Virus record (IMG/VR): IMGVR_UViG_3300045988_120991
Location: 96,001 to 160,000 of that record
DNA length: 64,000 nucleotides
Strand: one strand, 5' to 3'
From: a virus
In this document: piece after piece, positions 17,077 through 32,100 of the stretch
How the letters are laid out: each line of letters starts with the position of its first letter
Numbering within the stretch: the stretch's first letter is position 1
Notes under the pieces: generated by a model
Database searches by the model: none
The model's input: only the letters and a program-made list of their open reading frames with translations
What the model was told of the DNA's origin: nothing
Program-made: the position numbers and the translations under genes

Positions 17077-17121
17077 TTAATTTTGTACTGTAATTATAAC
17101 AGATATTTTCTATTTGTCAAG
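17077..17121 (-). promoter_or_regulatory. sigma-70-type promoter with conserved downstream box
   Basis: The minus strand reads CTTGACAAATAGAAAATATCTGTTATAATTACAGTACAAAATTAATTTAGGAAGG. Confidence 0.75.
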
Positions 17122-18241: not shown

Positions 18242-18244
18242 TGT

Positions 18245-18673
18245 CTACTCCTCAAATTCAATTTTCTCCTGGTGCCCATTACGAACCTCTGTGTACAGAT
18301 ACTTACTAGCAGCATAATCATTGTGAAAGTGCGCCCACTTATAAGCATCAAACATTGAATCGAAATCTACATCGTATCCGTAATAAATTGTATAGAAAGA
18401 TGTGTCGTCTCTATATCTTCCAATCATTACAAGTACATTATCCTCGTTCTGCAAAACGTTTCCAAGATACTTATGTGGGATTTCATAGATATTGTTAAGA
18501 ACATCCTCCACAATATCATAATCTACTGTAGTAACATTCTTTGTGATAAGAACTGTATTATTGTTACATTTGCAAACTGCATGGTAATACTTTAACCCCT
18601 TTATCTTATTCTCTGTGAACTCAGCAGATACTACCTCAAGCATTGCCCCTGAAACATCATATAATGTGCTCAT
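18245..18673 (-). CDS. hypothetical protein (142 aa)
   Basis: I trimmed the track ORF to ATG 18673 (GAGGAGGTTAGAC upstream). Confidence 0.55.
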   Translation of the reverse strand: MSTLYDVSGAMLEVVSAEFTENKIKGLKYYHAVCKCNNNTVLITKNVTTVDYDIVEDVLNNIYEIPHKYLGNVLQNEDNVLVMIGRYRDDTSFYTIYYGYDVDFDSMFDAYKWAHFHNDYAASKYLYTEVRNGHQEKIEFEE

Positions 18674-18688
18674 GTCTAACCTCCTCAA

Positions 18689-18733
18689 TTAATTTTGTAT
18701 TATAATTATAACGCAAATTTCTCATTTGTCAAG
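18689..18733 (-). promoter_or_regulatory. sigma-70-type promoter with conserved downstream box
   Basis: The minus strand reads CTTGACAAATGAGAAATTTGCGTTATAATTATAATACAAAATTAATTGAGGAGG. Confidence 0.75.
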
Positions 18734-18777
18734 TGCATTTTAGAAAAATAGCCACCTTTTTACAGGCGGCTTATTTT

Positions 18778-20007
18778 TTACATATAAATTGGATGTAGTT
18801 CGCATAGTTGACGAGCTATATCGGAGATATATTTCTTATTGCCATCGAAGTCTTTGATGGCCAACGAAATAAGTCCCGCCACATTTCTTGCGTCAAACTT
18901 ATCAAAGCCACGTGTAGTAATTGCGGGAGTCCCAATACGAAGACCACTAGTTACAAATGTGGATAGAGGGTCGTTAGGAATTGAATTTTTATTCGTTGTA
19001 ATGTTTACACTATCGAGCTTCTCCTGTAATTCTTTGCCAGTAATTCCTGTGTCTCTAAGGTCTAGAATCATTAGATGATTATCTGTTCCACCAGAAATAA
19101 GCTTAATGCCGTTTGTTTTAAATACACTTGCCATAGCCTTTGCATTATTAATAACATTATTCTGATATTCTGCAAATTCTGTCTTCAGTGCTTCACCAAA
19201 ACATACTGCCTTTGCTGCAATTATATGTTCTAGTGGACCGCCCTGAGTACCAGGAAATACTGCCGAATCAATCTTCTTTGCAAGTTTACTCTTGCACAAA
19301 ATAACTGCACCACGAGGGCCTCTCATGGATTTATGAGTCGTAAATGTGCAAACATCAGCATAAGGGACAGGACTTGGATGTACACCTCCTGCTACAAGTC
19401 CAGCAATATGCGCCATGTCTACAAAGAGATAAGCGCCTACTTCATCTGCAATTTCACGGAACTTTGCAAAATCAATGATACGCGGATATGCAGAAGCTCC
19501 TGCCAAAATCATCTTAGGCTTGTTATTTAGTGCAAGGTCCCTCACATTATCATAGTCAATAAAGCCATTTTCGCCTACTCCATAACGAACTACGTTAAAG
19601 TACTTGCCAGAAATGTTGAATGGTGCTCCGTGACTGAGATGCCCACCAGCAGAAAGATCCATGGACAGAACGGTATCACCAGGGGATAATAGTGCATAAA
19701 ATACTGCCAAATTTGCGCTTGCTCCTGAATGCGGCTGCACGTTTGCATGTTCTGCTCCAAATAGCTTTTTACAACGTTCAATTGCAAGAAGTTCTACTTC
19801 ATCAATATACTGACATCCACCATAGTATCTCGCATGAGGCTTTCCTTCTGCGTATTTATTGGTTAGAACAGATGACATTGCGTCAAGAACTGCTGGAGAC
19901 ACAATGTTTTCTGATGCAATAAGTTCGATTGTACCACGCTGCCTGTTAAGTTCTTTCAAACAAATATCGTATACTTCTACATCTTGCTTTTTTAGGTTGT
20001 CTAGCAT
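18778..20007 (-). CDS. glyA: serine hydroxymethyltransferase
   Basis: It shows full-length SHMT similarity, including the PLP-lysine motif [12 protein letters not shown] moved the start to ATG 20007 (AAGGAG 8 nt upstream); the track start at 20016 is GTG. Confidence 0.95.
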
Positions 20008-20025
20008 TATATTCACTCCTTACTT

Positions 20026-20052
20026 AAAAATAGGGGAGACTTTCGTCTCCCC
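20026..20052 (-). terminator. rho-independent terminator closing the tRNA operon
   Basis: The minus strand reads GGGGAGAC-GAAA-GTCTCCCC followed by TATTTTT. Confidence 0.7.
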
Positions 20053-20055
20053 TTA

Positions 20056-20131
20056 TGGAGCACGTGACGAGGCTTGAACTCGCAACAGCCAGATTGGAAA
20101 TCTGGAACTCTACCAATTGAGCTACACGTGC
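20056..20131 (-). tRNA. tRNA-Gly(UCC)
   Basis: Acceptor GCACGTG/CACGTGC, anticodon loop TTTCCAA, T-arm GCGAG-TTCAAGC-CTCGT, CCA encoded. Confidence 0.9.
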
Positions 20132-20136
20132 ATTTG

Positions 20137-20213
20137 TGGTACACCTTGAAGGACTCAAACCTTCGACCTTCTGATCCGTAGTCAGACGTTCTATTCAACT
20201 GAACTAAAGGTGC
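20137..20213 (-). tRNA. tRNA-Arg(ACG)
   Basis: Acceptor GCACCTT/AAGGTGT, anticodon loop CTACGGA, T-arm GAAGG-TTTGAGT-CCTTC, CCA encoded. Confidence 0.9.
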
Positions 20214-20218
20214 ATATA

Positions 20219-20293
20219 TGGTGCCCGTGGAGAGATTCGAACTCTCGACTCACGGCTTAAAAGGCCGTTACTCTACCACTGAGTTACACGAGC
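20219..20293 (-). tRNA. tRNA-Lys(UUU)
   Basis: Acceptor GCTCGTG/CACGGGC, anticodon loop CTTTTAA, T-arm GAGAG-TTCGAAT-CTCTC, CCA encoded. Confidence 0.9.
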
Positions 20294-20296
20294 ATA

Positions 20297-20373
20297 TGGT
20301 CGGAGTGCAGGGGCTTGAACCCTGGGCCTCTAGATCCCAAATCTAGCGCTCTACCAAACTGAGCTACACCCCG
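20297..20373 (-). tRNA. tRNA-Pro(UGG)
   Basis: Acceptor CGGGGTG/CACTCCG, anticodon loop TTTGGGA, T-arm CAGGG-TTCAAGC-CCCTG, CCA encoded. Confidence 0.9.
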
Positions 20374-20378
20374 AAATG

Positions 20379-20455
20379 TGGCACCCCGTGTTGGACTCAA
20401 ACCAACGACACATGGCTTAGAAGGCCATTGCTCTGTTCAACTGAGCTAACGGGGC
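20379..20455 (-). tRNA. tRNA-Arg(UCU)
   Basis: Acceptor GCCCCGT/ACGGGGT, anticodon loop CTTCTAA, T-arm GTTGG-TTTGAGT-CCAAC, CCA encoded. Confidence 0.9.
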
Positions 20456-20460
20456 ATATA

Positions 20461-20555
20461 TGGCGCCGAGGGTGGGATTCGAACCCACGGGCCGAATATA
20501 AATCGGCACACAAGATTTCAAGTCTAGGCGCTTATGACCACTTGCGCACCTCGGC
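20461..20555 (-). tRNA. tRNA-Ser(UGA), type II
   Basis: Acceptor GCCGAGG/CCTCGGC, anticodon loop CTTGAAA, long variable arm GCCGA-TTTATAT-TCGGC, T-arm GTGGG-TTCGAAT-CCCAC, G73, CCA encoded. Confidence 0.85.
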
Positions 20556-20668
20556 ATATTAACTTTGTAATCCCAAACTCCTCCACACAGATTACTGGGC
20601 ACCCCTTACCTCGAATGCTAGTTAGTAGCAACAAACGTTTGTGCCGTTTCCACAAATAAAGATACACC

Positions 20669-20863
20669 TCACTGCGTATTAACCTCTGTATATTCAGTAC
20701 TAGATAAGGTAATCATTCTTTCGCATCCGTCCTGTGGACAAAAAATATTTGCAACCCCAAGATTATTTATTCCGTCAGACGGATTAAATGCAAATTCACA
20801 ACCACAATAAGGGCAGATTGCCTTATAGGTCTTAACTTTGCCTCCCTTGATAATATACTTCAT
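20669..20863 (-). CDS. small zinc-ribbon protein (64 aa) inside the tRNA operon
   Basis: ATG 20863 follows GAGGTGTTATT. It contains CPYCGC...CPQDGC. Confidence 0.55.
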   Translation of the reverse strand: MKYIIKGGKVKTYKAICPYCGCEFAFNPSDGINNLGVANIFCPQDGCERMITLSSTEYTEVNTQ

Positions 20864-20874
20864 AATAACACCTC

Positions 20875-20994
20875 TTAATTAAACTTGTTCAACTGCCGCT
20901 TAACTTTACGGATAAGGCCCTCGTTCATAGTCTCGCCTCGTGCCAAAAGCTTTGCTAGACGATTTTCATAATGTTCCTTAGTGCGAAAGTTCAT
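20875..20994 (-). CDS. small basic protein (39 aa), not in track
   Basis: ATG 20994 follows TTTAGGAGGTACATATT. The translation is MNFRTKEHYENRLAKLLARGETMNEGLIRKVKRQLNKFN. Confidence 0.45.
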   Translation of the reverse strand: MNFRTKEHYENRLAKLLARGETMNEGLIRKVKRQLNKFN

Positions 20995-21020
20995 AATATG
21001 TACCTCCTAAAATTTTTGTA

Positions 21021-21143
21021 TGGCAGGGGTAGTAGGGTTCGAACCTACGATGCGGGAGTCTGGTCAAGGTAGTTGGTACTGCCCCAACTAAATTCACTTG
21101 AATACCTTGAAAGTCCCGTGCCTTACCACTTGGCTATACCCCT
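21021..21143 (-). tRNA. tRNA-Gln(UUG) interrupted by a 49-nt insert in the anticodon loop
   Basis: The structure is AGGGGTA-TA-GCCAAGTGGTAAGGC-A-CGGGA-[CTTT|49 nt|GAC]-TCCCG-CATC-GTAGG-TTCGAAC-CCTAC-TACCCCT-G-CCA. The Gln-like D-arm, weak 1:72 pair and G73 support the Gln assignment. Confidence 0.7.
21061..21109 (-). other. 49-nt intervening sequence in tRNA-Gln
   Basis: The sequence is CAAGGTATTCAAGTGAATTTAGTTGGGGCAGTACCAACTACCTTGACCA. It forms the P1 helix TCAAGGTA/TACCTTGA, the hairpin GTTGG-GGCAGTA-CCAAC and an 11-nt tail ending GACCA. Confidence 0.65.
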
Positions 21144-21146
21144 ATA

Positions 21147-21221
21147 TGGTGGATCTGACGTGACTCGAACACGCAACTTCTTCCTTGCAAGGGAAGCTTT
21201 CTCCCATTGAAATACAGACCC
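21147..21221 (-). tRNA. tRNA-Ala(UGC)
   Basis: Acceptor GGGTCTG/CAGATCC with G3:U70, anticodon loop CTTGCAA, T-arm GCGTG-TTCGAGT-CACGT, CCA encoded. Confidence 0.9.
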
Positions 21222-21383
21222 AGATTTTATGAGATAGCTACACTATGTATACCTAATGTAGCTATTAGGTTTTCTAACTCCTCACCTCAAACCATTTTTA
21301 TCTGTCTCTCCTCTTAGCCAATCAGATTTGAGTGACTTGAACGGACCGCCGTCCTCACATTGATAAAATAGTAAAATCAACAA

Positions 21384-21474
21384 TGGCGCGATAGGAAGGC
21401 TTCGAACCTTCGCACGGCTTTCACCGCCTAGCAGATTAGCAATCTACCCTCTTCAACCACTTGAGTACTACCGC
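21384..21474 (-). tRNA. tRNA-Ser(GCU), type II
   Basis: Acceptor GCGGTAG/CTATCGC, anticodon loop TTGCTAA, long variable arm, T-arm GAAGG-TTCGAAG-CCTTC, G73, CCA encoded. Confidence 0.85.
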
Positions 21475-21477
21475 ATA

Positions 21478-21681
21478 TTAATCTAATGTTCTTCCAGTTG
21501 CTAATTCAAAAATTAAATTATCAACACAGGGAATGTGCATTGCCTCTATCTCATATTGAGTACGATGTTCAATGTCATTAATATAGATAGGACAATCTTT
21601 ACATTCTACATTTTCACAAAAACGAACAGCTTTTTCTACTATTTTAGAATTCGCAAATTTTATATATTCTTCCCAACGCAT
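21478..21681 (-). CDS. hypothetical Cys-containing protein (67 aa) inside the tRNA operon
   Basis: I trimmed the track ORF to ATG 21681 (GGAGGATTTT upstream). Confidence 0.5.
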   Translation of the reverse strand: MRWEEYIKFANSKIVEKAVRFCENVECKDCPIYINDIEHRTQYEIEAMHIPCVDNLIFELATGRTLD

Positions 21682-21701
21682 AAAATCCTCCATAAAACGA
21701 G

Positions 21702-21730
21702 CAGTTTATACAGTGATACTCAGCACTATC
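21702..21730 (-). repeat. 29-nt repeat copy 1 (CAGTTTATACAGTGATNNNCAGCACTNTC on the plus strand)
   Basis: It matches 22095..22123 at roughly 25 of 29 positions by eye. Both copies lie just 3' of a tRNA on the minus strand. Confidence 0.6.
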
Positions 21731-21753
21731 CCACGGTCCCAATCGAGCTTTTC

Positions 21754-21828
21754 TGGAGCTGATGGAGAATTTCGAAATCTCGACCTAGTGATTACAAATC
21801 ACTCGCTCTGCCTCTGAGCTACACCAGC
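21754..21828 (-). tRNA. tRNA-Thr(UGU)
   Basis: Acceptor GCTGGTG/CATCAGC, anticodon loop TTTGTAA, T-arm GAGAT-TTCGAAA-TTCTC (one mismatch), CCA encoded. Confidence 0.85.
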
Positions 21829-21935
21829 AGATCTCCTCGTCTTTCCGAGGTGTCAATCGCACTTTTACATTAATAATCTTAAATTATTCTTTAATAGGAA
21901 GATGACGCCAATCTTGTGTGATTACCTTTTATGTG

Positions 21936-22004
21936 AGGTCTTAATTGGAATCGAACCAACACCTGCCCCACCACGGGGCCGATCTACCATTGAACTATAA
22001 GACC
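21936..22004 (-). tRNA. atypical tRNA, probably His(GUG); short anticodon loop and no encoded CCA
   Basis: The structure is GGTCTTA-TA-GTTC-AATGGTA-GATC-G-GCCCC-GTGGT-GGGGC-AGGT-GTTGG-TTCGATT-CCAAT-TAAGACC-T. The GTG is central in a 5-nt loop (or a 7-nt loop if the closing pair opens). Positions -1 (A) and 73 (U) could pair. Confidence 0.5.
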
Positions 22005-22006
22005 TA

Positions 22007-22083
22007 TGGTGACGCTACCGGGGATCGAACCCGGACACTCCACGGTGAAAGCGTGGTAACTCTACCAATTCGTCCATAGCGCC
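22007..22083 (-). tRNA. tRNA-Glu(UUC)
   Basis: Acceptor GGCGCTA/TAGCGTC, anticodon arm CCACG-CTTTCAC-CGTGG, T-arm CCGGG-TTCGATC-CCCGG, CCA encoded. Confidence 0.85.
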
Positions 22084-22094
22084 ATATCTTTGGA

Positions 22095-22123
22095 CAGTTT
22101 ATACAGTGATGTCCAGCACTGTC
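22095..22123 (-). repeat. 29-nt repeat copy 2
   Basis: See 21702..21730. The minus strand can fold as ACAGTG-CTGGACAT-CACTGT. Confidence 0.6.
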
Positions 22124-22134
22124 ACTTTTGGGAG

Positions 22135-22219
22135 TGGTAGCGGTGGTGGGCTACGATCCCACACGTCATAAGACATTGGTTTTTGAGACCAACCTGTCTG
22201 CCTGTTCCAGCACACCGCC
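22135..22219 (-). tRNA. tRNA-Leu(CAA), type II
   Basis: Acceptor GGCGGTG/CACCGCT, Leu-type D-loop GGAACAGGCAGAC, anticodon arm TTGGT-CTCAAAA-ACCAA, T-arm GTGGG-ATCGTAG-CCCAC, A73, CCA encoded. Confidence 0.8.
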
Positions 22220-22426
22220 ATATTAAGCACAACCTACATAGAGCTAGCCTCGCTCACACTTGCTTTCCCGAACACTTCCCACCCTCGGTTATGCTTTGTT
22301 ATTGTTTATCCTATTTTCACAATAACATATGCCTCGTTCTCTTCTCGTTACTATGGGTTAGTAACTTAGTAGCTTTTCTCTTGTGGATAGCACTTATCAA
22401 TACACCGAGAACCCCAATAGGCGGCA

Positions 22427-22502
22427 TGGTTGCGAAGTTCTGGAATCGAACCAGATTCTGATAGCTTATGAGACTACCTGAGATTCCTACCTCCCACTCG
22501 CA
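22427..22502 (-). tRNA. tRNA-Met-like (CAU) with imperfect acceptor stem
   Basis: Anticodon arm GTAGT-CTCATAA-GCTAT, T-arm TCTGG-TTCGATT-CCAGA, 3' end CTTCGCA-A-CCA. The acceptor pairs only if one C is bulged or two pairs are mismatched. Confidence 0.5.
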
Positions 22503-22586
22503 TTATCTAGCAGACTACAATGCCGTCTGCTAGGGCATTAGAAAGAGGTGATGCCTATAACCAAGGCTCTGAACTTGTCATTCAGA

Positions 22587-22736
22587 TGGTCCCCCACCGG
22601 TGGATTGAACACCGAACCTCCCGATTATTTGTCACTACAGTAAGTCCTGCCCTTACATTACTGATTATCCTTCAGTGGTGTTGCTTTTACACTATGTAGT
22701 GAAGTCGGGTGCTCTAGCCAGTTGAGCTAGCAGGGG
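22587..22736 (-). tRNA. tRNA-Ile(UAU) interrupted by a 73-nt insert in the anticodon loop
   Basis: The structure is CCCCTGC-TA-GCTC-AACTGGCTA-GAGC-A-CCCGA-[CTT|73 nt|ATAA]-TCGGG-AGGTT-CGGTG-TTCAATC-CACCG-GTGGGGG-A-CCA. Confidence 0.65.
22629..22701 (-). other. 73-nt intervening sequence in tRNA-Ile
   Basis: The sequence is CACTACATAGTGTAAAAGCAACACCACTGAAGGATAATCAGTAATGTAAGGGCAGGACTTACTGTAGTGACAA. It forms the P1 helix TCACTACA/TGTAGTGA, the hairpin GTAAG-GGCAGGA-CTTAC and an 11-nt tail ending GACAA. Confidence 0.65.
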
Positions 22737-23034
22737 ACATATAATCCGGCTTTTACGGTACGCCCAATAAGATGGACACGCTTGAATTTCACAATTGCCA
22801 TCAAAGTGCCTGATGACTAACACCCAATATGAAGCCTTGATATCATTGCTTCTAAGTCGTTATTGGGAACAACAGATGGTAATGATAGCAAGCGAAGCCG
22901 CGCATGACTCCATTTCACAGTGCTTCATCAACTACTTTTGGCATTTCTAATTATTATCGGTGCAGGTAGCTAATCCTGTAACGGCTTATCCTCATTGATT
23001 ATCTCCTATGAAATTTGCACTACTTACTATCATT

Positions 23035-23119
23035 TGGTGGGCCAGGGTGGTGCCGACCCACCTACTCCCGAAGGAAACGGATTTACAGTCCGCCGCAGTT
23101 GCCGATTTGCTACTGACCC
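23035..23119 (-). tRNA. tRNA-Tyr(GUA), type II
   Basis: Acceptor GGGTCAG/CTGGCCC, anticodon arm GCGGA-CTGTAAA-TCCGT, variable arm TCC-TTCG-GGA, T-arm GGTGG-GTCGGCA-CCACC, CCA encoded. Confidence 0.8.
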
Positions 23120-23446
23120 ATATAGCTATACTTTTTAACTTGGGCAAGAAGTATAGTGAAACTTGCCAGACGATCAAACCTTCATCCACATGGGAGCCAC
23201 ACGCAGTTCGTCCGTAGTATGTGGTTTTAATGTTTGAGTTGGTTCGCTACACCAACTCCGACTGACTTGCAATCGCACTATTTTCTCTACAATTGGCCTT
23301 TGCACTACATTCGCACCCTAGTGCATTAACCTTCCTATATAGTGAACTTCCCTTTCATTTTCTGCTTCGAGAACCAATCGCTTGTTCTCTACTCCAAGAC
23401 TTTGGACGGGAGATGGGGCGGTAGTTTAATGACTTGCCAAGGTCGA

Positions 23447-23579
23447 TGGTGCGGGTAGCGAGACTTGAACTCGCACGGATATTTCACCGAGGGATTTTTG
23501 GTGAGTATTGTAGGTGCTGCCCCTACCAAAGCACTGGCTATACCCAAGTCCCTTGTGTCTGCCATTCCACCATACCCGC
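23447..23579 (-). tRNA. tRNA-Leu(UAA), type II, interrupted by a 47-nt insert in the anticodon loop
   Basis: The structure is GCGGGTA-TG-GTGGAATGGCAGACAC-A-AGGGA-[CTT|47 nt|AAAA]-TCCCT-CGGTGAAATATCCGT-GCGAG-TTCAAGT-CTCGC-TACCCGC-A-CCA. The Leu-type D-loop and A73 support the Leu assignment. Confidence 0.75.
23499..23545 (-). other. 47-nt intervening sequence in tRNA-Leu(UAA)
   Basis: The sequence is GGGTATAGCCAGTGCTTTGGTAGGGGCAGCACCTACAATACTCACCA. It forms the P1 helix TGGGTAT/ATACTCA (one G:U pair), the hairpin GTAGG-GGCAGCA-CCTAC and an 11-nt tail ending CACCA. Confidence 0.65.
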
Positions 23580-23627
23580 ATATCACAGGGCAGCTTTAAG
23601 GTGATGCCCAGCACCATACTTAACTCC

Positions 23628-25181
23628 TTAAGAGTTCTTCAATGCGGCTTCCACCGCATCATATCTATCACTCATAAGCGTCTCAACGAGGCACTCATAA
23701 GGATTGGTCTTACCACTCATAACCATCTTGCAGACATTAGTGGAGAATCCACTAACAAGAGCAACACCAAGGTCATTCTCCTTTATAGGAATAGTTCCAG
23801 TGCGAGAATTTACATTCCAGAAGACTAGTCTAGGCATCTGATACCCAGCATCCTCGAAACGCTTCTTGATTACCTTAAAAAGTTTTGCATTAGGTCTATT
23901 AAGACCATATCTAGCGGAACCGTCACAAGTTGCACAAGAGTCAAACTCCATATCTGAAATAATCAGTACGTTCTTAGGCATATCCTCTTGCTTCATATGA
24001 CCATTCACCGCAGTAGTAAGAATCAAATCAAACACCTTTTCAATGTTTGTATTTGAACACTCGTCATGACCATATGCAACACGTAACTTATCTCTCAGAG
24101 AATCGCACTGACTAAAATCAACCAACTGAGGTCTGCTAGAGAAAGTAATGTATTTATCCTTAAAGTCTCCAGAAGAATGTTCTGCAAAGTAAATCGCAAG
24201 TGCATTTGCAACTTCAAGTGCAGTAACACGGCTACTTCCACCAACGTTGCAACACATAGAACCAGAGCCATCTGCAACTACAATGGTGTTTCCACATTCA
24301 TTTACTGTGTTAGGCAAAGCTTTCCAAAGAGATTCAAGAGTTGCATCGTATTTGCCGATACCGCCGTACCATCCAGTTGCACTAGAATACTTATGCACAA
24401 TGTCGTGAGGGAACAAAGTTCCAGCATTAATCTTAGTTTCGCCCTTTTCAAGCTTACTCAGATACTCTCTGCGACGCTCCTCATCATTACGAAGGAAAGC
24501 TCCGTTATAAATGAGATTTGCACGAGAAGGAACTGTTTCGTACTTAATGTCTCCCCATTTCTTTGCAGACATCTTGCCCTCTACAATATCAATGTAAGAA
24601 CGCAGAGAAGAAAGTGTCTTACGATACTCACGCTCAGTCATACCAAGATTCTTGCAAATGTATCTTGCATCCATCTTAGTTTTTGCAGAAGAAGCATTCA
24701 CAGAAGGAAGCCACTTGGCAAGAAGAGATACGGGCTTATTATCAGCCATATTTGCAATATCATCAGTGAGCTGCTTTTTGATGATGTCAAAAATAATACC
24801 ATCTACGTCTGTACCAAACAGACACCACAGGTCATCATAACGACCATACTCACTCACCAGAGGAGCAAGATGCTTAACAATATCAACGTCATCCTTTGCC
24901 ATATTCTTAATAATCGCTCTGAACAAACGTCTTTCACCAAGACCACCACGAACATCTCTGGCGAAGAACAGCCAACGTAGAGCCATCATTTTATCTTCAA
25001 AATAAGCCTTAGTAAACTTATTATAGATATTCTCCTCACTCATACCACGCATAGAAGAAACTGCAAAGTTTAGGTCAACCAGTTCCTTACCAGAGGTACG
25101 ATACCCAAGAGCGCCATTCTCAGTTACTGAATAGTTGAAATCCTCGTTCAGAGTATTCTTTACTGCATTCATAAAAGACAT
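23628..25181 (-). CDS. DUF2828-like protein: helical N-domain plus C-terminal vWA domain with MIDAS motif (Ro60/TROVE-like architecture)
   Basis: I trimmed the track ORF to ATG 25181 (TGGAGGAAAGAAA upstream). The N-terminus reads NYSVTENGALGYRTSGKELVDLNF...RDVRGGLGER. The vWA MIDAS motif is VVADGSGSM. Confidence 0.6.
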   Translation of the reverse strand: MSFMNAVKNTLNEDFNYSVTENGALGYRTSGKELVDLNFAVSSMRGMSEENIYNKFTKAYFEDKMMALRWLFFARDVRGGLGERRLFRAIIKNMAKDDVDIVKHLAPLVSEYGRYDDLWCLFGTDVDGIIFDIIKKQLTDDIANMADNKPVSLLAKWLPSVNASSAKTKMDARYICKNLGMTEREYRKTLSSLRSYIDIVEGKMSAKKWGDIKYETVPSRANLIYNGAFLRNDEERRREYLSKLEKGETKINAGTLFPHDIVHKYSSATGWYGGIGKYDATLESLWKALPNTVNECGNTIVVADGSGSMCCNVGGSSRVTALEVANALAIYFAEHSSGDFKDKYITFSSRPQLVDFSQCDSLRDKLRVAYGHDECSNTNIEKVFDLILTTAVNGHMKQEDMPKNVLIISDMEFDSCATCDGSARYGLNRPNAKLFKVIKKRFEDAGYQMPRLVFWNVNSRTGTIPIKENDLGVALVSGFSTNVCKMVMSGKTNPYECLVETLMSDRYDAVEAALKNS

Positions 25182-25219
25182 TTTCTTTCCTCCATTTTTT
25201 TGATTTATTTCTAAATCCC

Positions 25220-25420
25220 AAGACACATTATTATGTACAATCTCCACATTAAAAATTTGCTGTTAGTGTCTTTGGAGTTTATTCAACGAGACGCCAAAAT
25301 AAAACCATTAGTAAAAATATCATTTTCATCTTTTTAAATTGCTGTAAGCGTCTCTATGTAAGGCAAGGCACCATCAATATAAATCCATATCATATTATGT
25401 AAAGTTGCTGTTAGTGCCTT
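25220..25420 (-). ncRNA. three tandem hairpin units in the 5' leader of the DUF2828-like gene
   Basis: There are three perfect 7-bp stems: AAGGCAC/GTGCCTT (25365..25420), GAGACGC/GCGTCTC (25288..25354) and AAGACAC/GTGTCTT (25220..25272). Each loop opens with T[AT]ACAGCAA-N-TTT. Confidence 0.55.
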
Positions 25421-25426
25421 TTTAAA

Positions 25427-25544
25427 GTCTCCTGACAGGACTTGAACCTGCGACCTCTGGTTTAACAGACCAATTAGAAACTTGCTGTTTAAGGCTTTTA
25501 CAAGTCTCGTTATTAAGCGCTCTATCCGACTGAGCTACAGGAGA
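25427..25544 (-). tRNA. tRNA-Asn(GUU)-like element with a 44-nt insertion between the D-arm and anticodon stem; no encoded CCA
   Basis: The structure is TCTCCTG-TA-GCTC-AGTCGGATA-GAGC-G-[44 nt, 25474..25517]-TTGGT-CTGTTAA-ACCAG-AGGTC-GCAGG-TTCAAGT-CCTGT-CAGGAGA-C. Confidence 0.55.
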
Positions 25545-25582
25545 CATATTTATGAGCAGTTTAACGAGGTGCTCGGCTCACT

Positions 25583-25628
25583 TTAATTTTGTACTGTGAT
25601 TATACCACAGATTACTTATTTTGTCAAG
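25583..25628 (-). promoter_or_regulatory. sigma-70-type promoter with conserved box; likely promoter of the tRNA / DUF2828 operon
   Basis: The minus strand reads CTTGACAAAATAAGTAATCTGTGGTATAATCACAGTACAAAATTAAAGTGAGCC. Confidence 0.75.
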
Positions 25629-25741
25629 TACTTTTTTACTTTTTATTCCAGAGAAGCCATCCACAAGCAACTCCGAACAAGAAACATACAATTTCCTTCA
25701 TCTTTACTTCTTCCTTATTATACCATATTCGGCATCATTTG

Positions 25742-26092
25742 TCAAGCATTTTCTCGATTTTTTCTTGTGCAATTTACTCGATTGCAGAACTCAAACATTG
25801 CTGCATTAAGATCCTCTGCAAACTCATCACACTTGGTATCCAGTGCTGCATAGTACCGATCCAGAAGCTTCGCCTTTGCCATCTTCATACCAATAGCAGG
25901 ATCATACTCATCATCAGGATGACACACGACAACCGCACGATAAGAACTACTCATCAGGTACTTACTAGGATCGAAGCACAGAGATTTGGTCTGTCCCATA
26001 ATCTTTGCAATCTTATGGATAGCATCATACTTCGTGTTCTCAAGAACCGCAATGGTCTTGTTCTGCTCCGGCACATGTACAAACTTAATCAT
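25742..26092 (-). CDS. hypothetical protein (116 aa)
   Basis: ATG 26092 follows AAGAAAGGATAACAAAA. A CHPDDEYDPAIGMKMAKAK motif is present, but I do not know its function. Confidence 0.55.
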   Translation of the reverse strand: MIKFVHVPEQNKTIAVLENTKYDAIHKIAKIMGQTKSLCFDPSKYLMSSSYRAVVVCHPDDEYDPAIGMKMAKAKLLDRYYAALDTKCDEFAEDLNAAMFEFCNRVNCTRKNRENA

Positions 26093-26112
26093 TTTTGTTA
26101 TCCTTTCTTGTT

Positions 26113-26158
26113 TTAATTTTGTATTGTGATTATAACATGCTTTCTTGAACTTGTCAAG
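26113..26158 (-). promoter_or_regulatory. sigma-70-type promoter with conserved downstream box
   Basis: The minus strand reads CTTGACAAGTTCAAGAAAGCATGTTATAATCACAATACAAAATTAAAACAAGAAAGGA. Confidence 0.75.
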
Positions 26159-26205
26159 CCCTTTTTAACCATCCCGGTAAAGGTTCTTGCCTCATTCATT
26201 GTTTG

Positions 26206-26236
26206 TATTATAGCGCATTAATTTTGTTTTGTCAAG
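26206..26236 (-). promoter_or_regulatory. second, tandem promoter with the box inside the spacer
   Basis: The minus strand reads CTTGACAAAACAAAATTAATGCGCTATAATACAAAC (TTGACA, 17-nt spacer, TATAAT). Confidence 0.6.
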
Positions 26237-27380
26237 TATCTTTTTTAAATAATTTTCTAGTTTCTTCATAAGACAGGTACTTAATATTAATGCCCGTCAA
26301 ATTCAGCAGTTTTTCATTTTTAAACTCGTTAACATGAGTTACTGCAAGAGATACCTCATAGGCAATATCCCCAATGTCTTCCTTAATTCTTTGCATAAGC
26401 TCACCAACATCAAGATGCCCATACCGAATGGACCCCTGATACTGGTTTGTAATATTGGTCTTGTCATCAATGTTAATGTTAATCTCCGACTTATCACATT
26501 CACATTCAAAGTCACCAGCACCATGCTTCGTCATATATGTTCTAGTAACATAGCACACTTCAACGTTTGCATTAGGTAAATACTTTTCAATGATTATATG
26601 AGGATTTGCAATGCCAGTATTGCTAGGAGTCGTATTATCATAATACTGAACATGACGCTGATCCAACAGCAATCCTTGCCCATTTTCAAATACGACATTA
26701 TCAAACTTTTGCAAAATCCTACTATAATCAAATACTACATGAGAATGCATAAACTGCGCATCGTCAATAAAGTTATAAATCAAATTGTCGGATGCCAAAA
26801 TATCTTCCCATTCCTGCAAAACTTCAGGACTAGCCTTTAGCAGCCTCTTAGACGTATATTCATCCCTGACACGCTTAAGAAATGCGACCTGCTCGTCCTT
26901 AGTCATATTATAGAACTGCTGGAAAGACGGGCTTGTAGTATTCCTATATCTAAGAACAGTTTCCCAAATACCCATACCACAAGAGCCATACCGATTTTTG
27001 CCACGACTATCCTCAAGGATTTGATTTGTAATCATATCATATGGAGTAGACCATCTGCAATTCCAATGACTATAAACACGAGGTGCATAGCCTAATGCCT
27101 TCAATTCCTCGTACTCTTTTCTAAAAGTCATAGGGTTTAGAATATACTCTTCCCCAAAATAAGTATCTGCTCCCGCAAAGGTTCCTGAACCAAAATGGTG
27201 GAACACATGTCTAATGCCATCTGGAGTAACTACAGTATGTCCTCTTTGTGCGCCGCCATTGCATAGAGCAACGATACAAGATTCATTCCGCTTACTTGCT
27301 TCGGCACAAAAGTAATCGGTCATCAGACCTTTTCCCTCGTCGCCAAAGTTGCTACCAATTACTACCTTAACATTAGACAT
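26232..27380 (-). CDS. adenylosuccinate synthetase family protein, divergent (PurA-like; PurZ candidate)
   Basis: I trimmed the track ORF to ATG 27380 (AAAGGATAAACAC upstream). It has the P-loop GSNFGDEGKG, then NGGAQRGHTVV (compare PurA GGHNAGHT), and the equivalent of the GTTGRGIG block reads YGSCGMGIWET. Confidence 0.75.
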   Translation of the reverse strand: MSNVKVVIGSNFGDEGKGLMTDYFCAEASKRNESCIVALCNGGAQRGHTVVTPDGIRHVFHHFGSGTFAGADTYFGEEYILNPMTFRKEYEELKALGYAPRVYSHWNCRWSTPYDMITNQILEDSRGKNRYGSCGMGIWETVLRYRNTTSPSFQQFYNMTKDEQVAFLKRVRDEYTSKRLLKASPEVLQEWEDILASDNLIYNFIDDAQFMHSHVVFDYSRILQKFDNVVFENGQGLLLDQRHVQYYDNTTPSNTGIANPHIIIEKYLPNANVEVCYVTRTYMTKHGAGDFECECDKSEININIDDKTNITNQYQGSIRYGHLDVGELMQRIKEDIGDIAYEVSLAVTHVNEFKNEKLLNLTGINIKYLSYEETRKLFKKDT

Positions 27381-27394
27381 GTGTTTATCCTTTC

Positions 27395-28249
27395 TTACCA
27401 AGAAATACCTTCACTAGATGTTGCTACATTGCCACCAGAAAACGCATTGGTGACAATATCAATGATGTCATCTGCAATCTTATCAATAGACGTATCCTTC
27501 AGATGGTTCTCGTCCAGAAGCAGCCCAAAAGTCCTATGAACGGCCTCATGATAACGACCATAACCATGCTTAACATACAGATGATAAATGTCAAACTTCT
27601 CAGACGCATTAGCGTAAAGCTGTGCCGTTTCAACATCGCTCTGTAGATTATCACCAGTTACTGCGGATAGAGCCTTCTTCGGCAGATATGGATTCATAGG
27701 CTCGTCACCCATAGTGATAATGACACCCTTCTGTCCACGATTCCAGCAATCTAGCTTCGTGTGATTAAGACCGAAATACCATGCGGCGCTATAAGACTCA
27801 TAATCATTGCCTCCACCACCGCCCTCAAAATAAATCTTATCAAGCTGTTCTGCGATGCGGATATCAGACTCAAACTGTGATGCCTGAATAGGAGCGCAAT
27901 CGTAAGCAAGATCCCCAATGCCCATAACCATGAACTCTACGTCTGCGATATTCTCGTATAGCTTAGTCATTACTACATTGATCTGCTTTGCAACTTCCAT
28001 AGCCGCCTTGCCCATGCTACCAGTTACATCGAGTGCCAGAATAACAGGCTTGGTATTAGGATGTTCCACAGAGTCAACACACTCACGCATTACATTCTTA
28101 GGATTAAGGTCTGCTACTAGCATTTTAGATTTAAAATTGTCCTGCACATTAGAGGACATTCCAGTGACTACACCATCCATTGATACGCTGTACCCCTTGG
28201 TAGTCGCATAAGTGGTAAAAGCATTTTTAGTCCAACTGCCACCGCCCAT
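27395..28249 (-). CDS. vWA-domain protein
   Basis: It has the MIDAS motif LALDVTGSMG and an alpha/beta pattern typical of vWA domains. Confidence 0.7.
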   Translation of the reverse strand: MGGGSWTKNAFTTYATTKGYSVSMDGVVTGMSSNVQDNFKSKMLVADLNPKNVMRECVDSVEHPNTKPVILALDVTGSMGKAAMEVAKQINVVMTKLYENIADVEFMVMGIGDLAYDCAPIQASQFESDIRIAEQLDKIYFEGGGGGNDYESYSAAWYFGLNHTKLDCWNRGQKGVIITMGDEPMNPYLPKKALSAVTGDNLQSDVETAQLYANASEKFDIYHLYVKHGYGRYHEAVHRTFGLLLDENHLKDTSIDKIADDIIDIVTNAFSGGNVATSSEGISW

Positions 28250-28251
28250 TT

Positions 28252-28827
28252 TTACTCAGCCTCACTTTCATCATCAATATCAAAATCAAACATGCCACTA
28301 AACATGTCGGATACATTGTTACCGTTCATAAGCATCATCATAGGAAGCATAGAACCCATACCATTGCTGGAAGTATTGCTACCCTTCATCATCTCGGACA
28401 TTACCATATAAGACATCATCTTATCCATACCCTTCTTGCCCTTCATAAAGTTGTTGCCGAACATGGAAACAATCTTGCCGTAGAAATAGGTATTGCCCAT
28501 AAAGACATGACGCTCAGGAAGAATGGTTTCTACAGTAGAATCCTCGTAGTTAATTACCGTGATGGTATCCTTGTCAGACTTAACAACACACTTGGGCTTA
28601 CCAGATACCAGAATGATGTCTCCAACCTCAACCTTGTTTGTAGGAATAACGAAGAAGAACTCCTCACCAATGTCGAAGACGAAGCTATCACAGTTCGTTA
28701 GACGACCATTCTTCACATTGTAGCTCTTATAGCCGGTAGTCGTCTTAACTGCAATGCCACCACTCATAGAAAGTCTGCACATACCAGGGGCAATCTTGCC
28801 GAACATACCATTGAATACATTTGTCAT
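28252..28827 (-). CDS. hypothetical protein with Met-rich, acidic C-terminal tail
   Basis: ATG 28827 follows AAAAAGGAGAAGTGTT. The C-terminus reads MMSYMVMSEMMKGSN...MLPMMMLMNGNN...DFDIDDESEAE. Confidence 0.6.
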   Translation of the reverse strand: MTNVFNGMFGKIAPGMCRLSMSGGIAVKTTTGYKSYNVKNGRLTNCDSFVFDIGEEFFFVIPTNKVEVGDIILVSGKPKCVVKSDKDTITVINYEDSTVETILPERHVFMGNTYFYGKIVSMFGNNFMKGKKGMDKMMSYMVMSEMMKGSNTSSNGMGSMLPMMMLMNGNNVSDMFSGMFDFDIDDESEAE

Positions 28828-28848
28828 AACACTTCTCCTTTTTGAACT

Positions 28849-28909
28849 TTAATTTTGTATTGTGTTTTTTGATAATTGAATAATACCACGCCATTTTCGT
28901 TTTGTCAAG
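28849..28909 (-). promoter_or_regulatory. sigma-70-type promoter; the conserved box lies about 20 nt downstream of the -10
   Basis: The minus strand reads CTTGACAAAACGAAAATGGCGTGGTATTATTCAATTATCAAAAAACACAATACAAAATTAAAGTTCAAAAAGGAG. Confidence 0.7.
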
Positions 28910-28970
28910 AGGTAATTCGGTGGCAGTATGCGTAAGTTTTTGACTGAATTACCTCTCAACTGTATTTTGG

Positions 28971-29000
28971 ATTATAGCACTATATATTTCATTTGTCAAG
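28971..29000 (-). promoter_or_regulatory. sigma-70-type promoter without the box
   Basis: The minus strand reads CTTGACAAATGAAATATATAGTGCTATAATCC. Confidence 0.65.
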
Positions 29001-29165
29001 TGCTTTTTCATATTTTTCGCAATCTAATTGTAGTCTTGCCTGAGAGTATATATCTTTGTTGTTGCTTATATGCCTCTGACAATTGATGTGAGTGCAGTCT
29101 TTGCCATCACATACGGTAAAGCACATAGGATTTGTGTGCTCATCATATTCAATAAAATAATTCAT
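28989..29165 (-). CDS. small Cys-rich protein (58 aa), not in track
   Basis: ATG 29165 follows AAGGTGATATT. The translation is MNYFIEYDEHTNPMCFTVCDGKDCTHINCQRH... Confidence 0.5.
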   Translation of the reverse strand: MNYFIEYDEHTNPMCFTVCDGKDCTHINCQRHISNNKDIYSQARLQLDCEKYEKALDK

Positions 29166-29174
29166 AATATCACC

Positions 29175-32100
29175 TTATATAATTATATTTACAAGATAAT
29201 TCGTCAACCAAGGTTCTTGCTCTGGGAGTTTAACCCATTGACCATTCTCGTCCTTACGGCTCTTATTTCTCATTTCAGAATGGAACTGTAATATACAATC
29301 TTTATTAAAAGGATTCTTCTCATAAGCCTTTTTCTGTACCTTATAGACTACAGTTTGCCCATCCCAAAGTTGATAAACCGTAATACGAGGACTCCAATTT
29401 GTATTCAAATCCATAACATAACCAATATTCTTTTTATCTGGAATTACCAATGAACAGAATCCAAAAAGGTCACATTGCCATTTTATTTTAGACTGAATAG
29501 GAACTTCTACTTGTGGAATCATAGAACATAATTCTTTAAGTAGTCCATCTGGATCGGTAATTCTATATTGTTTCTCTGTAGCCGTTGTGTATTTGTCAAG
29601 AAGTTCTTGTGGAAGTCTACATTTGTCCTTCTTCAAAATTTTCTTTCCAGCAAACTGGTCATATACTTCTACAAGGTGCAAAAGAGTTCCCGAAGGTCCA
29701 AAGTCAGAAAAATAGTCAATCTTAATCAATGTATCAATCTTTGCAGAGTTTAAACTAGGAATCTTTTTCATAGCAGTAAGTAACTCAATGAAACTATCAA
29801 ACTTCTGTTTCTGTGAAAGTTCATACAAATCATCCGCACAAGCTTGGCTTAGTCCTTTAATTGACAATAGAGACGGGTTAATTACATGCTTCTCCTTGTC
29901 TGCAACAAACTTTCTGTTATCAACACCAAATTTATACTCACCCTCTTTAATGCCAAAAGCTACTTGCATCTCCTGTTTAAGAGCTTGAACTTTATCCTTC
30001 TTGCCCTTATCAGAAAACACTTGTAGAAGGACTTCATAAAATTCATATTGATAATGAGCCTTTAACCATGCACAATACAGACTATCAAGAGCCATACAAT
30101 AAGCATGAGCACTATTGAAGCCATATCCGCAGGAATCATCAATAATCTGCCATACCTTTGCACTCATTTCTTCCGCTTCTGCATCTGGAATATGGTCATC
30201 CTCCATAATACGCTTCTTGAATCCTTCAATGAATCTAGATTTCAAAGGACGAACCTTTTCTGGATGCTTCTTTGCAATAGCTTTAATAATTCCATAGCAT
30301 TCATCAAGGGGGAATCCAGCATAGTTTAATGTATTCATACTCTGCTCTTGATAAAGAATATAAGAATATGGGAATTGTGGTGTTTGAAGAATCTTATCAA
30401 AAGCCTTAATTCCATACTCAAAATGCTCACGTGATTCAAACTTAGAATACATAGACTTAAAAGCAGGACGAATTGCAGCAATCCAAGCGGCTAACTCTGA
30501 AATATTCTGAGGCTTATACTTTTTGAGCTTTCTCATTGCAGATTCTTTCTCACACTGATTAACTCCAATAGTATATCCATTGGCATAAATATCCCATACT
30601 TTCTTGTCACCATCAACAAGGTCACTAATCTCGCTAGCCGTATGTACTGGAATACCAATACGCTTATAAATCATATCAATGAGCAAAACAACATCTACTT
30701 TAAGCAAGTCATTTTTAAGGAACTTGTACTTTTCTGCAATTGCTCCATCAATAACTGTAGTAATATATTCACGCTTTGTGCTTTCACTCTTGCACTTGAT
30801 AAGACCAATTTCTTCTCTGATGCTACCCTGGTACAATAAGTAGGCACAAGGGGCCTTGTTTTTGTGGTCAATTACTCCCCAATATTTCTTGCTCTTATCA
30901 ATATATGGTTTATACTGCTCATCAATAAAGTCATAAATATTAATATCATCCTTGTCGTCATCGTCGGCATATTTTACTGCTTCTTCATACTTATCAATCT
31001 GCTTAGAAATTTCATTTGCAATATCATAATCTAAGTTAGCTGCTCTTGCGTACAACTTGAATGCTGACTTCTTCTTTAGTGTACCAAAAGCAACCATAGG
31101 ATATGCATGATCTTCTCCAAGAATTTCTTTCTGAGCTTCTGCAAAAGGTTCTACCGTGCCAAGGTTCATATCCAAATCTGGTAATGACTTGGTTTCCAAA
31201 ATTCTCGTCTTACTAATAAAACGCTCTGGATACAGTTTAATTGGAGATGTAAATCTATCAACCTTAGAAAATCCACATAGGGTATTGGTAAAATAACCAA
31301 CGGCACTACCTCTGCCAGTAGTTGTGATAAGCCCACCCTTTTCAATGCCACGCTTAATAATAGCATAATCCATCAAAGGATAGTCCACCATACCAGTTTC
31401 TTTATATACTGATACTTCTTGTTTAACTCCATCAAAGTATTCTTTATATTTATCCTTTGGAACATGTTTCACATAGTCTTTAAAAAGCCTAGAAATAAGC
31501 TTACTATATATTTTATTTCGTTCCTCCTGTGTTTTATCTGGATACAATGTAGGTAACTTAATGTCTGTAGTAAATACTGGCACATTGTCATAATCATCAA
31601 AAGTTAGCAGAATATCAGTATTGTCCATAGCTTTTTGCACAGTTTCTGCATCAAACACACCTTGCTCTACAAATCTTTGACGAACAGTATCATCGTCTGG
31701 ATAATCCATATACCAACCAACTTCATTGTCATCAAACTGAATATTTCGCCCAGCTAGGATATCATCTCTTTCTACCGATTGCTCTGGATAAATATAATGG
31801 CTATCAAGTCCAACTATCATTGGAATGTTATACTTCTCAGACAATTCTTTAATATGCTTGTTTAGAATAATTTGTCTTGAAGTATTGTGATTTTGAATTT
31901 CTAACATGAAGTTGTCTTTAAAATAATCATGTAGATGTTTTACAATTTCGTCACTGTCTTCATATTTCCAAAAGGCAATACATGCAGTTGTGATAAAAAC
32001 ATCATCAGCAGGAAGTGAAAAAATTAAATCAAGGTCAATTCTTGGTTTATAATAATATCCTGTTTCGTTAGCATCAGATAGAATACGATTTATGGCACGT

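Follow-up and report, generated by a model that had tools for sequence, protein, structure and literature searches.

What does a Ro60-like protein do in a virus that encodes it next to an array of tRNA genes, and which RNAs might be its partners? The question is raised by a 64,000-nucleotide stretch of viral DNA (positions 96,001 to 160,000 of the IMG/VR record IMGVR_UViG_3300045988_120991; the whole stretch is referred to as the window), in which the minus strand carries a gene for a 517-aa protein (23628..25181) upstream of tRNA genes. Ro60 together with Y RNAs forms a classic ribonucleoprotein (RNP), the bacterial and viral roles of which are poorly understood. We report that the window protein belongs to a family with a Ro60-like architecture, as supported by fold and profile comparisons, and that a small covarying hairpin, here called the ACAGCAA module, adjoins the gene both in the window and in very distant phages. 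Taking the reading as a whole, we favour, at a probability of roughly 0.55, that protein and hairpins form a divergent Ro60/Y-RNA-type particle, the RNAs of which would be released from tRNA-operon transcripts.

The window protein and its resemblance to Ro60

The coding sequence (CDS; 23628..25181, minus strand; PHROG 850) starts with the ATG at 25181, 7 nt after a ribosome-binding site (GGAGG, 25189..25193, minus strand) read from the sequence. A GTG at 25247 would give a 539-aa version; since this start falls within the third hairpin module, and since homologues start at MSFMNA, we consider the 517-aa reading to be correct. A preliminary description of this locus, made from the sequence alone, had recognised a DUF2828-like N-terminal region and a C-terminal vWA domain bearing the MIDAS (metal ion-dependent adhesion site) motif, and the strings that it quoted (TENGALGY, DLNF, RDVRGGLGER and DGSGSM) are each found in the product. 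Both domains are borne out by Pfam, with matches to PF11443 (DUF2828, a helical domain; E 2.3e-33) and PF25043 (DUF7788, vWA/MIDAS; E 8.9e-46), the generic VWA_2 model reaching E 0.083 at best, and phrog_850 ('RNA-binding protein') matches residues 4-508 (1e-139). Moreover, the MIDAS is complete, D304-x-S306-x-S308, T378 and D410 being invariant among 16 sequences with identities down to 33%. The helical domain equals the vWA domain in size, is nearly as conserved in the alignment, and has the invariant Arg/Lys-rich motifs RDxRGGxGER and AKWxP. Searches against PADLOC (known anti-phage defence proteins) and the NCBIfam named families gave no match for the window protein.

The AlphaFold2 model of the protein (predicted local distance difference test, pLDDT, 74.6; predicted template modelling score, pTM, 0.63) is poor at residues 200-260 and less confident in its N-terminal part. 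Using Foldseek against 350,542 PDB chains, the top three matches were Ro60 structures: two of Ro60 from Thermus phage phiLo (9kop, E 3.5e-8, and 9l5y, E 1.2e-7; template modelling (TM) scores 0.50/0.54) and one of Xenopus Ro60 with RNAs (1yvp, E 1.4e-5). These align over the full length (531-591 columns) with TM scores of 0.40-0.54 and root mean square deviations of 9-13 Å. Below them all PDB matches cover the vWA domain only (TMq ≤0.26); the helical domain raises the TM score to 0.5 (full Ro60), as against about 0.25 when the vWA domain alone is matched. Searched against the viral structures of BFVD, the model aligned best with phage and giant-virus proteins of the DUF2828/DUF7788 type (TM 0.6-0.7), and a TROVE-domain phage protein was also recovered (E 6e-8). 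Profile comparison with hhalign aligned the family with phiLo Ro60 in the vWA region (95.8% probability, E 8e-9) and with the TROVE protein of Streptomyces phage Alone3 (93.7%, E 2e-7). The latter alignment spans residues 175-404 of the query and 251-469 of the template, and thereby covers the last ~110 residues of the helical domain in the query and the C-terminal TROVE segment in the template. Among PDB sequences, a diverse family profile matched the phiLo Ro60 entries alone, marginally and at the MIDAS strand (E 0.03), while phmmer and a profile of close relatives found no match for the window protein. The two-domain Ro60 layout proposed in the preliminary description is thus supported by predicted fold and by profile comparison, not by plain sequence search.

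It could be argued that this likeness arose by convergence, or that a mediocre model simulates it, and that we are dealing with a helical-repeat plus vWA protein of unrelated function accompanied by a small mobile repeat. The TM scores of just 0.40-0.54, the correspondingly large deviations, the unmatched Pfam TROVE model and the readiness with which helical repeats match one another would all fit. We nevertheless consider this very improbable: the three Ro60 structures are the sole full-length matches among all PDB chains searched, a TROVE-domain phage protein is retrieved from BFVD, and the hhalign alignment reaches into the TROVE region. As judged from the model and the profiles, we conclude that the DUF2828/DUF7788 proteins would constitute a distinct sister family with Ro60 architecture, outside the TROVE family.

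The window protein is a new member of a known and already annotated family. It has homologues in 710 phage records; the family comprises 6,880 clusters at 50% identity and occurs on some 100 genome contigs, chromosomes of Clostridiales, spirochaetes, cyanobacteria and mycobacteria among them, and existing database labels for it are 'RNA-binding protein' and 'Ro-like RNA binding protein'. In a PhageMaP preprint, gp130 of phage Bas63 was reported to resemble Ro60, to be encoded directly upstream of tRNAs and to be required against the Ppl defence, and its deletion makes Bas63 sensitive to Ppl (PMC11482910). We find that Bas63 gp130 (MZ501086) is a full-length homologue of the window protein (37% identity, E 2e-94), and that the complete E. 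coli genomes searched lack a copy of the Bas63 gene. The Ro-like label and the position upstream of tRNAs in Bas63 are already known, and the tRNA link of the protein is accordingly not new. For LeBron gp53, a member of the DUF2828/DUF7788 family, overexpression was found to be toxic (PMC13148394), and phiLo Ro60 binds two Y-like (Yrl) RNAs encoded upstream of it and attenuates host polynucleotide phosphorylase (PNPase; PMC12135203). The complete chromosome of Clostridiales bacterium CCNA10 (AP018533.1, 1009962..1019494; locus L099) carries a 65%-identical homologue, probably on a prophage, together with an ACAGCAA module; this homologue suggests that the window phage group infects Clostridia/Oscillospiraceae.

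These precedents also bear on an alternative in which the protein acts mainly by way of contacts that its vWA/MIDAS domain makes with other proteins, for example by inhibiting a host defence ATPase or nuclease such as Ppl or serving as its decoy, RNA binding being incidental and the hairpins unrelated elements. Conservation is highest in the vWA/MIDAS part, which is also the sole part with direct sequence-level likeness to other families, the N-terminal part is modelled less confidently, MIDAS sites typically bind protein ligands (PMC12135203), and the known phenotype is anti-defence only (PMC11482910). This alternative leaves unexplained a helical domain that is equally large and nearly as conserved, that has invariant Arg/Lys-rich motifs and that lifts the TM score to Ro60 from ~0.25 to 0.5; together with the behaviour of the hairpins described below, this makes it improbable in our judgement.

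A hairpin module on the strand of the gene

The 400-nt leader between promoter and start codon holds three tandem hairpins on the minus strand. Each consists of a 7-bp helix, a 2-nt spacer, ACAGCAA, an AU-rich loop of 30-44 nt (in the window copies), the 3' strand of the helix and a G. To search for such modules we built a covariance model, R1, from 22 modules of nine lineages; a plain MAFFT alignment misregistered the 3' strands, and a loop-trimmed seed with Infernal realignment was used instead. Module 1 (25363..25422) has the helix AAGGCAC/GTGCCTT followed by G (R1 34.4 bits, E 2e-7), module 2 (25286..25356) has GAGACGC/GCGTCTC followed by G and a 44-nt loop (R1 25.8 bits, E 4e-5, 25353..25289), and module 3 (25218..25274) has AAGACAC/GTGTCTT followed by G (R1 36.7 bits, E 5e-8); the three helices differ through compensatory changes. 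The preliminary description had taken 25220..25544 as one tRNA-like/hairpin RNA. Its tRNA-like part stands, but not the single RNA: the segment comprises an interrupted tRNA-Asn-like gene and the three tandem modules. R1 finds no module in the spacers of the window tRNA array, even with filters off, or in the rest of the 64-kb window, and the 'structured spacers' that the same description ascribed to the array are therefore not the ACAGCAA element. Rfam 15 has no family covering the module, and no description of it was found in the open-access literature; as candidate partner RNAs the ACAGCAA hairpins are apparently undescribed.

The association of the module with the gene extends far beyond the window. 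In 78 IMG/VR relatives ACAGCAA occurs at 5.1 per kb in the 500 nt upstream of the gene compared with 0.26 elsewhere, i.e. a 20-fold enrichment. For a wider comparison we used 15 lineages, the window and 14 isolates of different families, which are not fully independent and were compared without a formal null; in 12 of these the module flanks the homologous gene on the gene strand. A loose helix test had too high a null rate to be informative, and a test with fixed geometry was used in its place. In this test, 28 of the 31 ACAGCAA sites that lie on the gene strand at most 1.2 kb from the gene have a perfect 7-bp helix, followed by G in 27 cases; the corresponding numbers are 6 of 29 (5 with G) elsewhere on the gene strand and 1 of 16 (none with G) on the opposite strand, while random positions give a perfect helix in 14% and a helix followed by G in 3.3%. 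With R1, the window and the 14 isolate loci (361 kb) gave 36 matches at E≤1, 35 of them on the gene strand; 24 reach E<0.01, and these divide into 20 at no more than 1.2 kb from the gene and 4 located inside tRNA arrays. For 41 IMG/VR relatives there were 58 matches at E≤0.001, all on the gene strand beside the gene, and in 60 independent genome loci (535 kb) the same is true for all 58 matches at E≤0.01, which flank the gene in 28 loci.

Evidence that the helix itself is conserved comes from 47 instances outside the seed. In these, 99.7% of the cells pair and seven of the seven pairs have changes on both sides, with a covariation score of 0.79, whereas shuffling gives 0.25 and slid registers about 0.1; conservation amounts to 94-100% for ACAGCAA and to 98% for the 3' G. 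R1 finds modules neither at the phiLo and Alone3 loci, the Ro genes of which are of the TROVE type, nor in a 42-kb region of T5 with 25 tRNAs.

Between 2 and 8 modules stand in tandem, most of them lacking a tRNA-like core, and their placement varies. They are upstream of the gene in Thrax1, List-36, EFDG1, F367 and 4_4572, downstream in S-CoN_Ph4, CicholasNage, LPCS28 and RSP15, between tRNAs in Sf17 and Bas63, and downstream or between tRNAs, outside the 5' leader, in Mycolicibacterium sphagni; in Ounavirinae they sit 8-14 nt from the flanking tRNAs. The hairpin modules show neither the terminal repeats nor the target duplications of typical mobile elements and are strictly strand- and position-specific, contrary to what a small mobile repeat would predict. 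Moreover, the hosts of the module-bearing loci range from Actinobacteria to Campylobacter, the hairpins track the gene across this range, always on its strand, and tRNA arrays lacking the gene are without them. A functional link between hairpin and gene is thus indicated, because such strand-fixed co-occurrence across hosts is otherwise hard to explain, and this argues against the hairpins being elements unrelated to a protein that works by protein contacts.

Some modules also resemble known Y RNAs, of which YrlA is defined by a circularly permuted tRNA mimic. The AU-rich loop of the ACAGCAA modules often holds an inner hairpin or a permuted tRNA-like core. Some modules of EFDG1, Sf17, LPCS28 and RSP15 carry, after ACAGCAA and before the 3' strand, a T-arm, then a closed acceptor-like hairpin and then a D-arm, and Rfam YrlA (RF02553) matches two EFDG1 modules over the full length of the model (44.9 bits, E 9.5e-7, and 34.2 bits), the closing helix being left unaligned. 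Near the TROVE-type Ro gene of Alone3 there is a YrlA-like match and no ACAGCAA module. Since the EFDG1 cores are YrlA-like while Alone3 has a YrlA-like RNA without ACAGCAA, the two protein families appear each to have their own RNA recognition element on a shared Y-RNA plan. By analogy, the short modules would correspond to YrlB-like and the long modules to YrlA-like RNAs. A canonical YrlA was also sought in the window and rejected, the best Rfam matches reaching just 21-23 bits and overlapping real tRNAs.

The main rival explanation takes the hairpins to be cis elements, either autoregulatory operators to which the protein binds or RNase processing/stability signals, and the substrates of the protein to be tRNAs of the phage or the precursors of these, among them the interrupted tRNAs; in the latter part it is the chaperone or quality-control idea of the preliminary description. 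Modules confined to the leader in the window, Thrax1, List-36, EFDG1, F367 and 4_4572 are what such elements would look like. Those of S-CoN_Ph4, CicholasNage, Mycolicibacterium sphagni, Sf17/Bas63, LPCS28 and RSP15 can, however, not be operators in a 5' untranslated region, and the complete YrlA-like tRNA mimic in some modules is typical of free Y RNAs. The explanation as a whole, including its tRNA part considered below, seems to us unlikely, if by no means negligible.

Transcription unit, tRNA genes and neighbouring genes

All genes of the region are on the minus strand. Pattern scans identify a sigma-70-type promoter (25599..25627, minus strand; TTGACA-17-TATAAT, 12/12, extended TG) as the likely start of the unit, and an intrinsic-terminator-like hairpin with a T-rich tail (20032..20053, minus strand; ATTTTTAAGT), the sole such site on this strand within 19500..29500; weaker promoter-like sites lie inside the unit at 23686..23658 and 25403..25376. 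This agrees with the earlier observation that there is no terminator before ~20026..20052, and from the promoter (25627..25599) to the terminator (20053..20032) the Ro60-like gene is, as had been noted, the sole large open reading frame (ORF). The remaining minus-strand ORFs of the unit are each at most 71 aa, two of those in the array (20669..20863 and 21478..21693; 64 and 71 aa) being possible small genes. Co-transcription of the ORF with the tRNAs is what these scans, which use sequence patterns only, would predict.

The tRNA array (20056..23119, minus strand) comprises 14 tRNAs predicted by ARAGORN and an interrupted tRNA-Gln (21143..21024). Rfam adds in all three tRNA-like genes with inserts (21143..21024, 23579..23450 and 25544..25427), which brings the unit to 16 tRNAs downstream of the ORF (14 by ARAGORN plus 2 interrupted by Rfam) and one upstream, instead of the 17 downstream counted previously. 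The first gene 3' of the CDS, after a 48-nt gap, is a tRNA-Leu(UAA) with a 47-nt insertion in the anticodon (23450..23579, minus strand). In this gene and in the tRNA-Gln(UUG) (21024..21143) the inserts are precise, 47 nt after U34 and 49 nt after U35, respectively; they have a common hairpin with the loop GGGGCAG(C/U)A and ACCA at the end, and are far too short for group I introns. Uninterrupted orthologues of both split tRNAs are present in near-identical phages (L004, L006). The upstream tRNA-Asn(GUU)-like gene (25427..25544, minus strand; Rfam tRNA 42.3 bits, and fold) has an insertion of ~45 nt between D-arm and anticodon stem, 57 nt replacing 13 positions of the Rfam model, and its 3' end (25427) abuts module 1 (25422); the gene may represent an interrupted tRNA or else a third kind of partner RNA. 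The site of this insertion is unusual, and the insert holds a fourth copy of ACAGCAA (25488), which we rejected as a module, since its helix is mismatched and its 3' strand would be the T-arm (R1 14.7 bits).

Similar genes exist elsewhere. The gene-carrying phages LPCS28, Aeh1 and 4_4572 have tRNA-like genes of 113-122 nt in which long inserts replace the anticodon arm (L091, 11889..12009 and 12019..12131; L088, 14187..14308; L092, 1490..1606 and 7500..7616), and those of LPCS28 lie directly 3' of the Ro60-like gene and have the motif ACGCAAACTGAYAAGTTTGTATTCAGCA in common. Close relatives of the window phage encode tRNAs with a CUA anticodon (amber-suppressor type) and a tRNA of which the anticodon loop (UUUU) has 8 nt (L005, 12173..12249; L023, 518..611; L043, 98..191; L002, 14926..15002), a hint of recoding, at stop codons or by frameshift, within this group of phages.

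A link of DUF2828 genes with tRNA arrays, which the preliminary description had proposed as a check, and one with RNA-repair genes, which it had mentioned for bacterial Ro60/Rsr, are both seen in the 15 lineages. In 8 of these a same-strand tRNA is found at most 1 kb from the gene and in 13 at most 5.2 kb from it, the gene being upstream, downstream or inside the array depending on lineage. RNA-repair or tRNA-maturation genes adjoin it in several cases: RtcB and an RNA ligase in List-36, an RNA ligase and a CCA-adding enzyme in CBB and SE_PL, Rnl2 in 4_4572 and a CCA-adding enzyme in LPCS28. These neighbours and the nearby tRNAs would suit a protein acting on tRNAs or their precursors, as would the interrupted tRNAs flanking the gene in the window and in LPCS28, and misfolded structured RNAs are among the known ligands of Ro60 (PMC12135203). 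Against tRNAs as the substrate stands that close relatives with the gene have uninterrupted tRNAs, the inserts therefore not being a conserved substrate, and against quality control of tRNA that the single experimental phenotype of the family is anti-defence, directed at Ppl (PMC11482910).

Other structured RNAs were noted in such regions. The tRNA regions beside the homologue in the Enterococcus phage EFDG1 and the Listeria phage List-36 contain a transfer-messenger RNA (tmRNA) and ROOL matches, the latter scoring 88 and 91.5 bits, just under the threshold of 99.1 (L081, 1..266 and 6110..6460; L084, 8471..9022). The T5 tRNA array has eight annotated 'stable RNAs of unknown function' (L181, 10285..13084, 13878..13950 and 20849..21567), some of them tRNA-like and without a match to the ACAGCAA model. 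Structured RNAs in the spacers of tRNA arrays may be a general, under-studied feature of phages.

Further genes surround the unit. Just 3' of the terminator, 17117..20016 (minus strand) holds genes for two proteins, one of 412 aa that resembles serine hydroxymethyltransferases and one of 374 aa that resembles NifS-like cysteine desulfurases, as judged by their translations only. On the other side, 26232..27401 (minus strand) encodes an adenylosuccinate-synthetase homologue (phrog_1211, '2-aminooxy adenylosuccinate synthetase') that is far under the NCBIfam PurA cut-offs and has a weak PurZ match (32.8 bits); the gene could belong to modified-purine (Z-type) DNA metabolism. A second MIDAS-like protein (LDVTGSMG; phrog_2971) is encoded two genes upstream of the Ro60-like gene (27395..28249, minus strand), and searches of Pfam, NCBIfam and PADLOC gave no match for it. 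Within 3.4 kb (25599..28999, minus strand) there are five TTGACA-17-TATAAT promoters that score a perfect 12/12, and four of these have extended TG, which suggests very strong early transcription by host sigma-70/sigma-A holoenzyme.

The proposed particle and known Ro60 systems

How could these elements work together? In the Ro60/Y-RNA-type particle that we favour, the hairpin RNAs beside the gene are most likely the cognate ligands of the Ro60-like protein, taking the role of the Y RNAs YrlA and YrlB. A single strong promoter would drive the tRNA-like gene, the three modules, the protein gene and the 16 tRNAs up to the terminator; RNase P and RNase Z/E would cut hairpin RNAs and tRNAs from the common precursor, from which the protein would also be translated. 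Release by tRNA-processing enzymes is suggested because the modules would share a transcript with tRNA genes and adjoin them. The protein would then bind the helix/ACAGCAA element as Ro60 binds Y RNA, and early in infection the RNP may act on host RNA-decay or defence nucleases or proteins, with protection of phage RNAs, tRNAs included, as the outcome; the attenuation of PNPase by phiLo Ro60 and the counter-defence of Bas63 gp130 against Ppl would be precedents. An RNP had already been suggested in the preliminary description, and the idea gains strength from the conserved hairpin RNAs beside the gene, some of which have a YrlA-like core.

Our reading is founded on the fold and profile similarity to Ro60, the strand-specific linkage of the module, the covariation of its helix, the YrlA-like cores of some modules and the homology to Bas63 gp130. 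Several points weigh against it. Protein-RNA binding, precursor processing and the molecular target are steps that we infer. The structural model is only moderately confident, its TM score to Ro60 is ~0.5 and it does not establish ring closure, and Pfam TROVE (PF05731) is unmatched at E≤10 by the window protein and 15 relatives, while the reference phage Ro60s of phiLo and Alone3 do match it. On the RNA side, the window modules are all in the 5' leader, where a cis-regulatory role fits too, and they have no Rfam YrlA match at E≤10; in the EFDG1 modules YrlA aligns only with the tRNA-like core and below the gathering score of 69 bits. Aeh1, CBB and SE_PL carry the gene without a nearby module, as do 32 of the 60 genome loci within 4 kb. 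The seed helices were picked by complementarity, a bias that the non-seed set and the motif-anchored count reduce and do not fully remove. Finally, the Ppl phenotype rests on one preprint and one phage, without a mechanism.

A broader and more tentative proposal, to which we give somewhat less than even odds, is that DUF2828-type proteins and ACAGCAA RNAs make up a second, virus-centred Ro60/Y-RNA lineage, the RNAs of which would be by-products of tRNA-operon processing and which would disarm host nucleases or defences such as PNPase or Ppl. The protein family spans phages of Gram-positive, Gram-negative and actinobacterial hosts as well as giant viruses, and the ACAGCAA RNA has so far been seen in phage, prophage and metagenome-assembled genome loci only.

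A gene labelled 'Ro-like RNA-binding protein' is present in thousands of phage genomes, hitherto lacking a known RNA partner and with a single unexplained anti-defence phenotype. A covarying module that tracks the gene across very distant phages provides a concrete candidate ligand and makes the binding and function of the protein directly testable in the tractable system of Bas63 and E. coli. Our data also suggest that functional small RNAs are encoded in the spacers of phage tRNA arrays, which as a rule are passed over or labelled as tiny ORFs, and Ro-type systems appear as at least two protein/RNA pairs with distinct recognition elements.

Among known systems, Rsr, Y RNA and PNPase form the 'RYPER' machine of Deinococcus and Salmonella. 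With Ro60/Rsr and its Y RNAs (YrlA, YrlB, Yrn1) the window family has in common a helical, putatively ring-forming domain followed by a C-terminal vWA domain with MIDAS, small structured RNAs that adjoin the gene on its strand, some with a permuted tRNA-like core, and RNA-repair neighbours (RtcB, ligases) in several lineages. It differs in being of the DUF2828/DUF7788 type without a Pfam TROVE match, and in its RNAs: the conserved protein-proximal element is a 7-bp helix plus ACAGCAA plus 3' G and not a bulged helix or YrlA stem, and the RNAs are tandem (2-8 copies), mostly coreless and embedded in phage tRNA operons.

The phiRo60 of Thermus phage phiLo (PDB 9kop, 9l5y; PMC12135203) is the best structural match and the sole PDB sequence match of the profile. 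It is likewise a phage protein with its partner RNAs, Yrl1 and Yrl2, encoded just upstream, as are the candidate RNAs in the window, and neutralising of host nucleases has been proposed for it. Unlike the window protein, to which it is 16% identical, it is a TROVE-domain protein; its locus has no ACAGCAA modules, its Yrl RNAs being defined by a CGAA motif, and no tRNA genes are listed in the 6 kb around the gene. Alone3 gp37, a TROVE-type actinobacteriophage Ro-like protein, is encoded inside a same-strand tRNA array with a Y-like RNA nearby and reaches 93.7% in hhalign; it differs in matching Pfam TROVE and in having a YrlA-type RNA as partner instead of ACAGCAA modules.

The closest parallel with a phenotype is Bas63 (JohannRWettstein), the authors of which guessed that some of its annotated tRNAs might be Y RNAs and did not describe the ACAGCAA hairpins (PMC11482910). 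In Bas63 the modules, one of which spans 82237..82298 of MZ501086, lie downstream in unannotated inter-tRNA spacers and not in the leader as in the window; in both, a protein of the same family is encoded directly upstream of a tRNA array and is accompanied by ACAGCAA modules.

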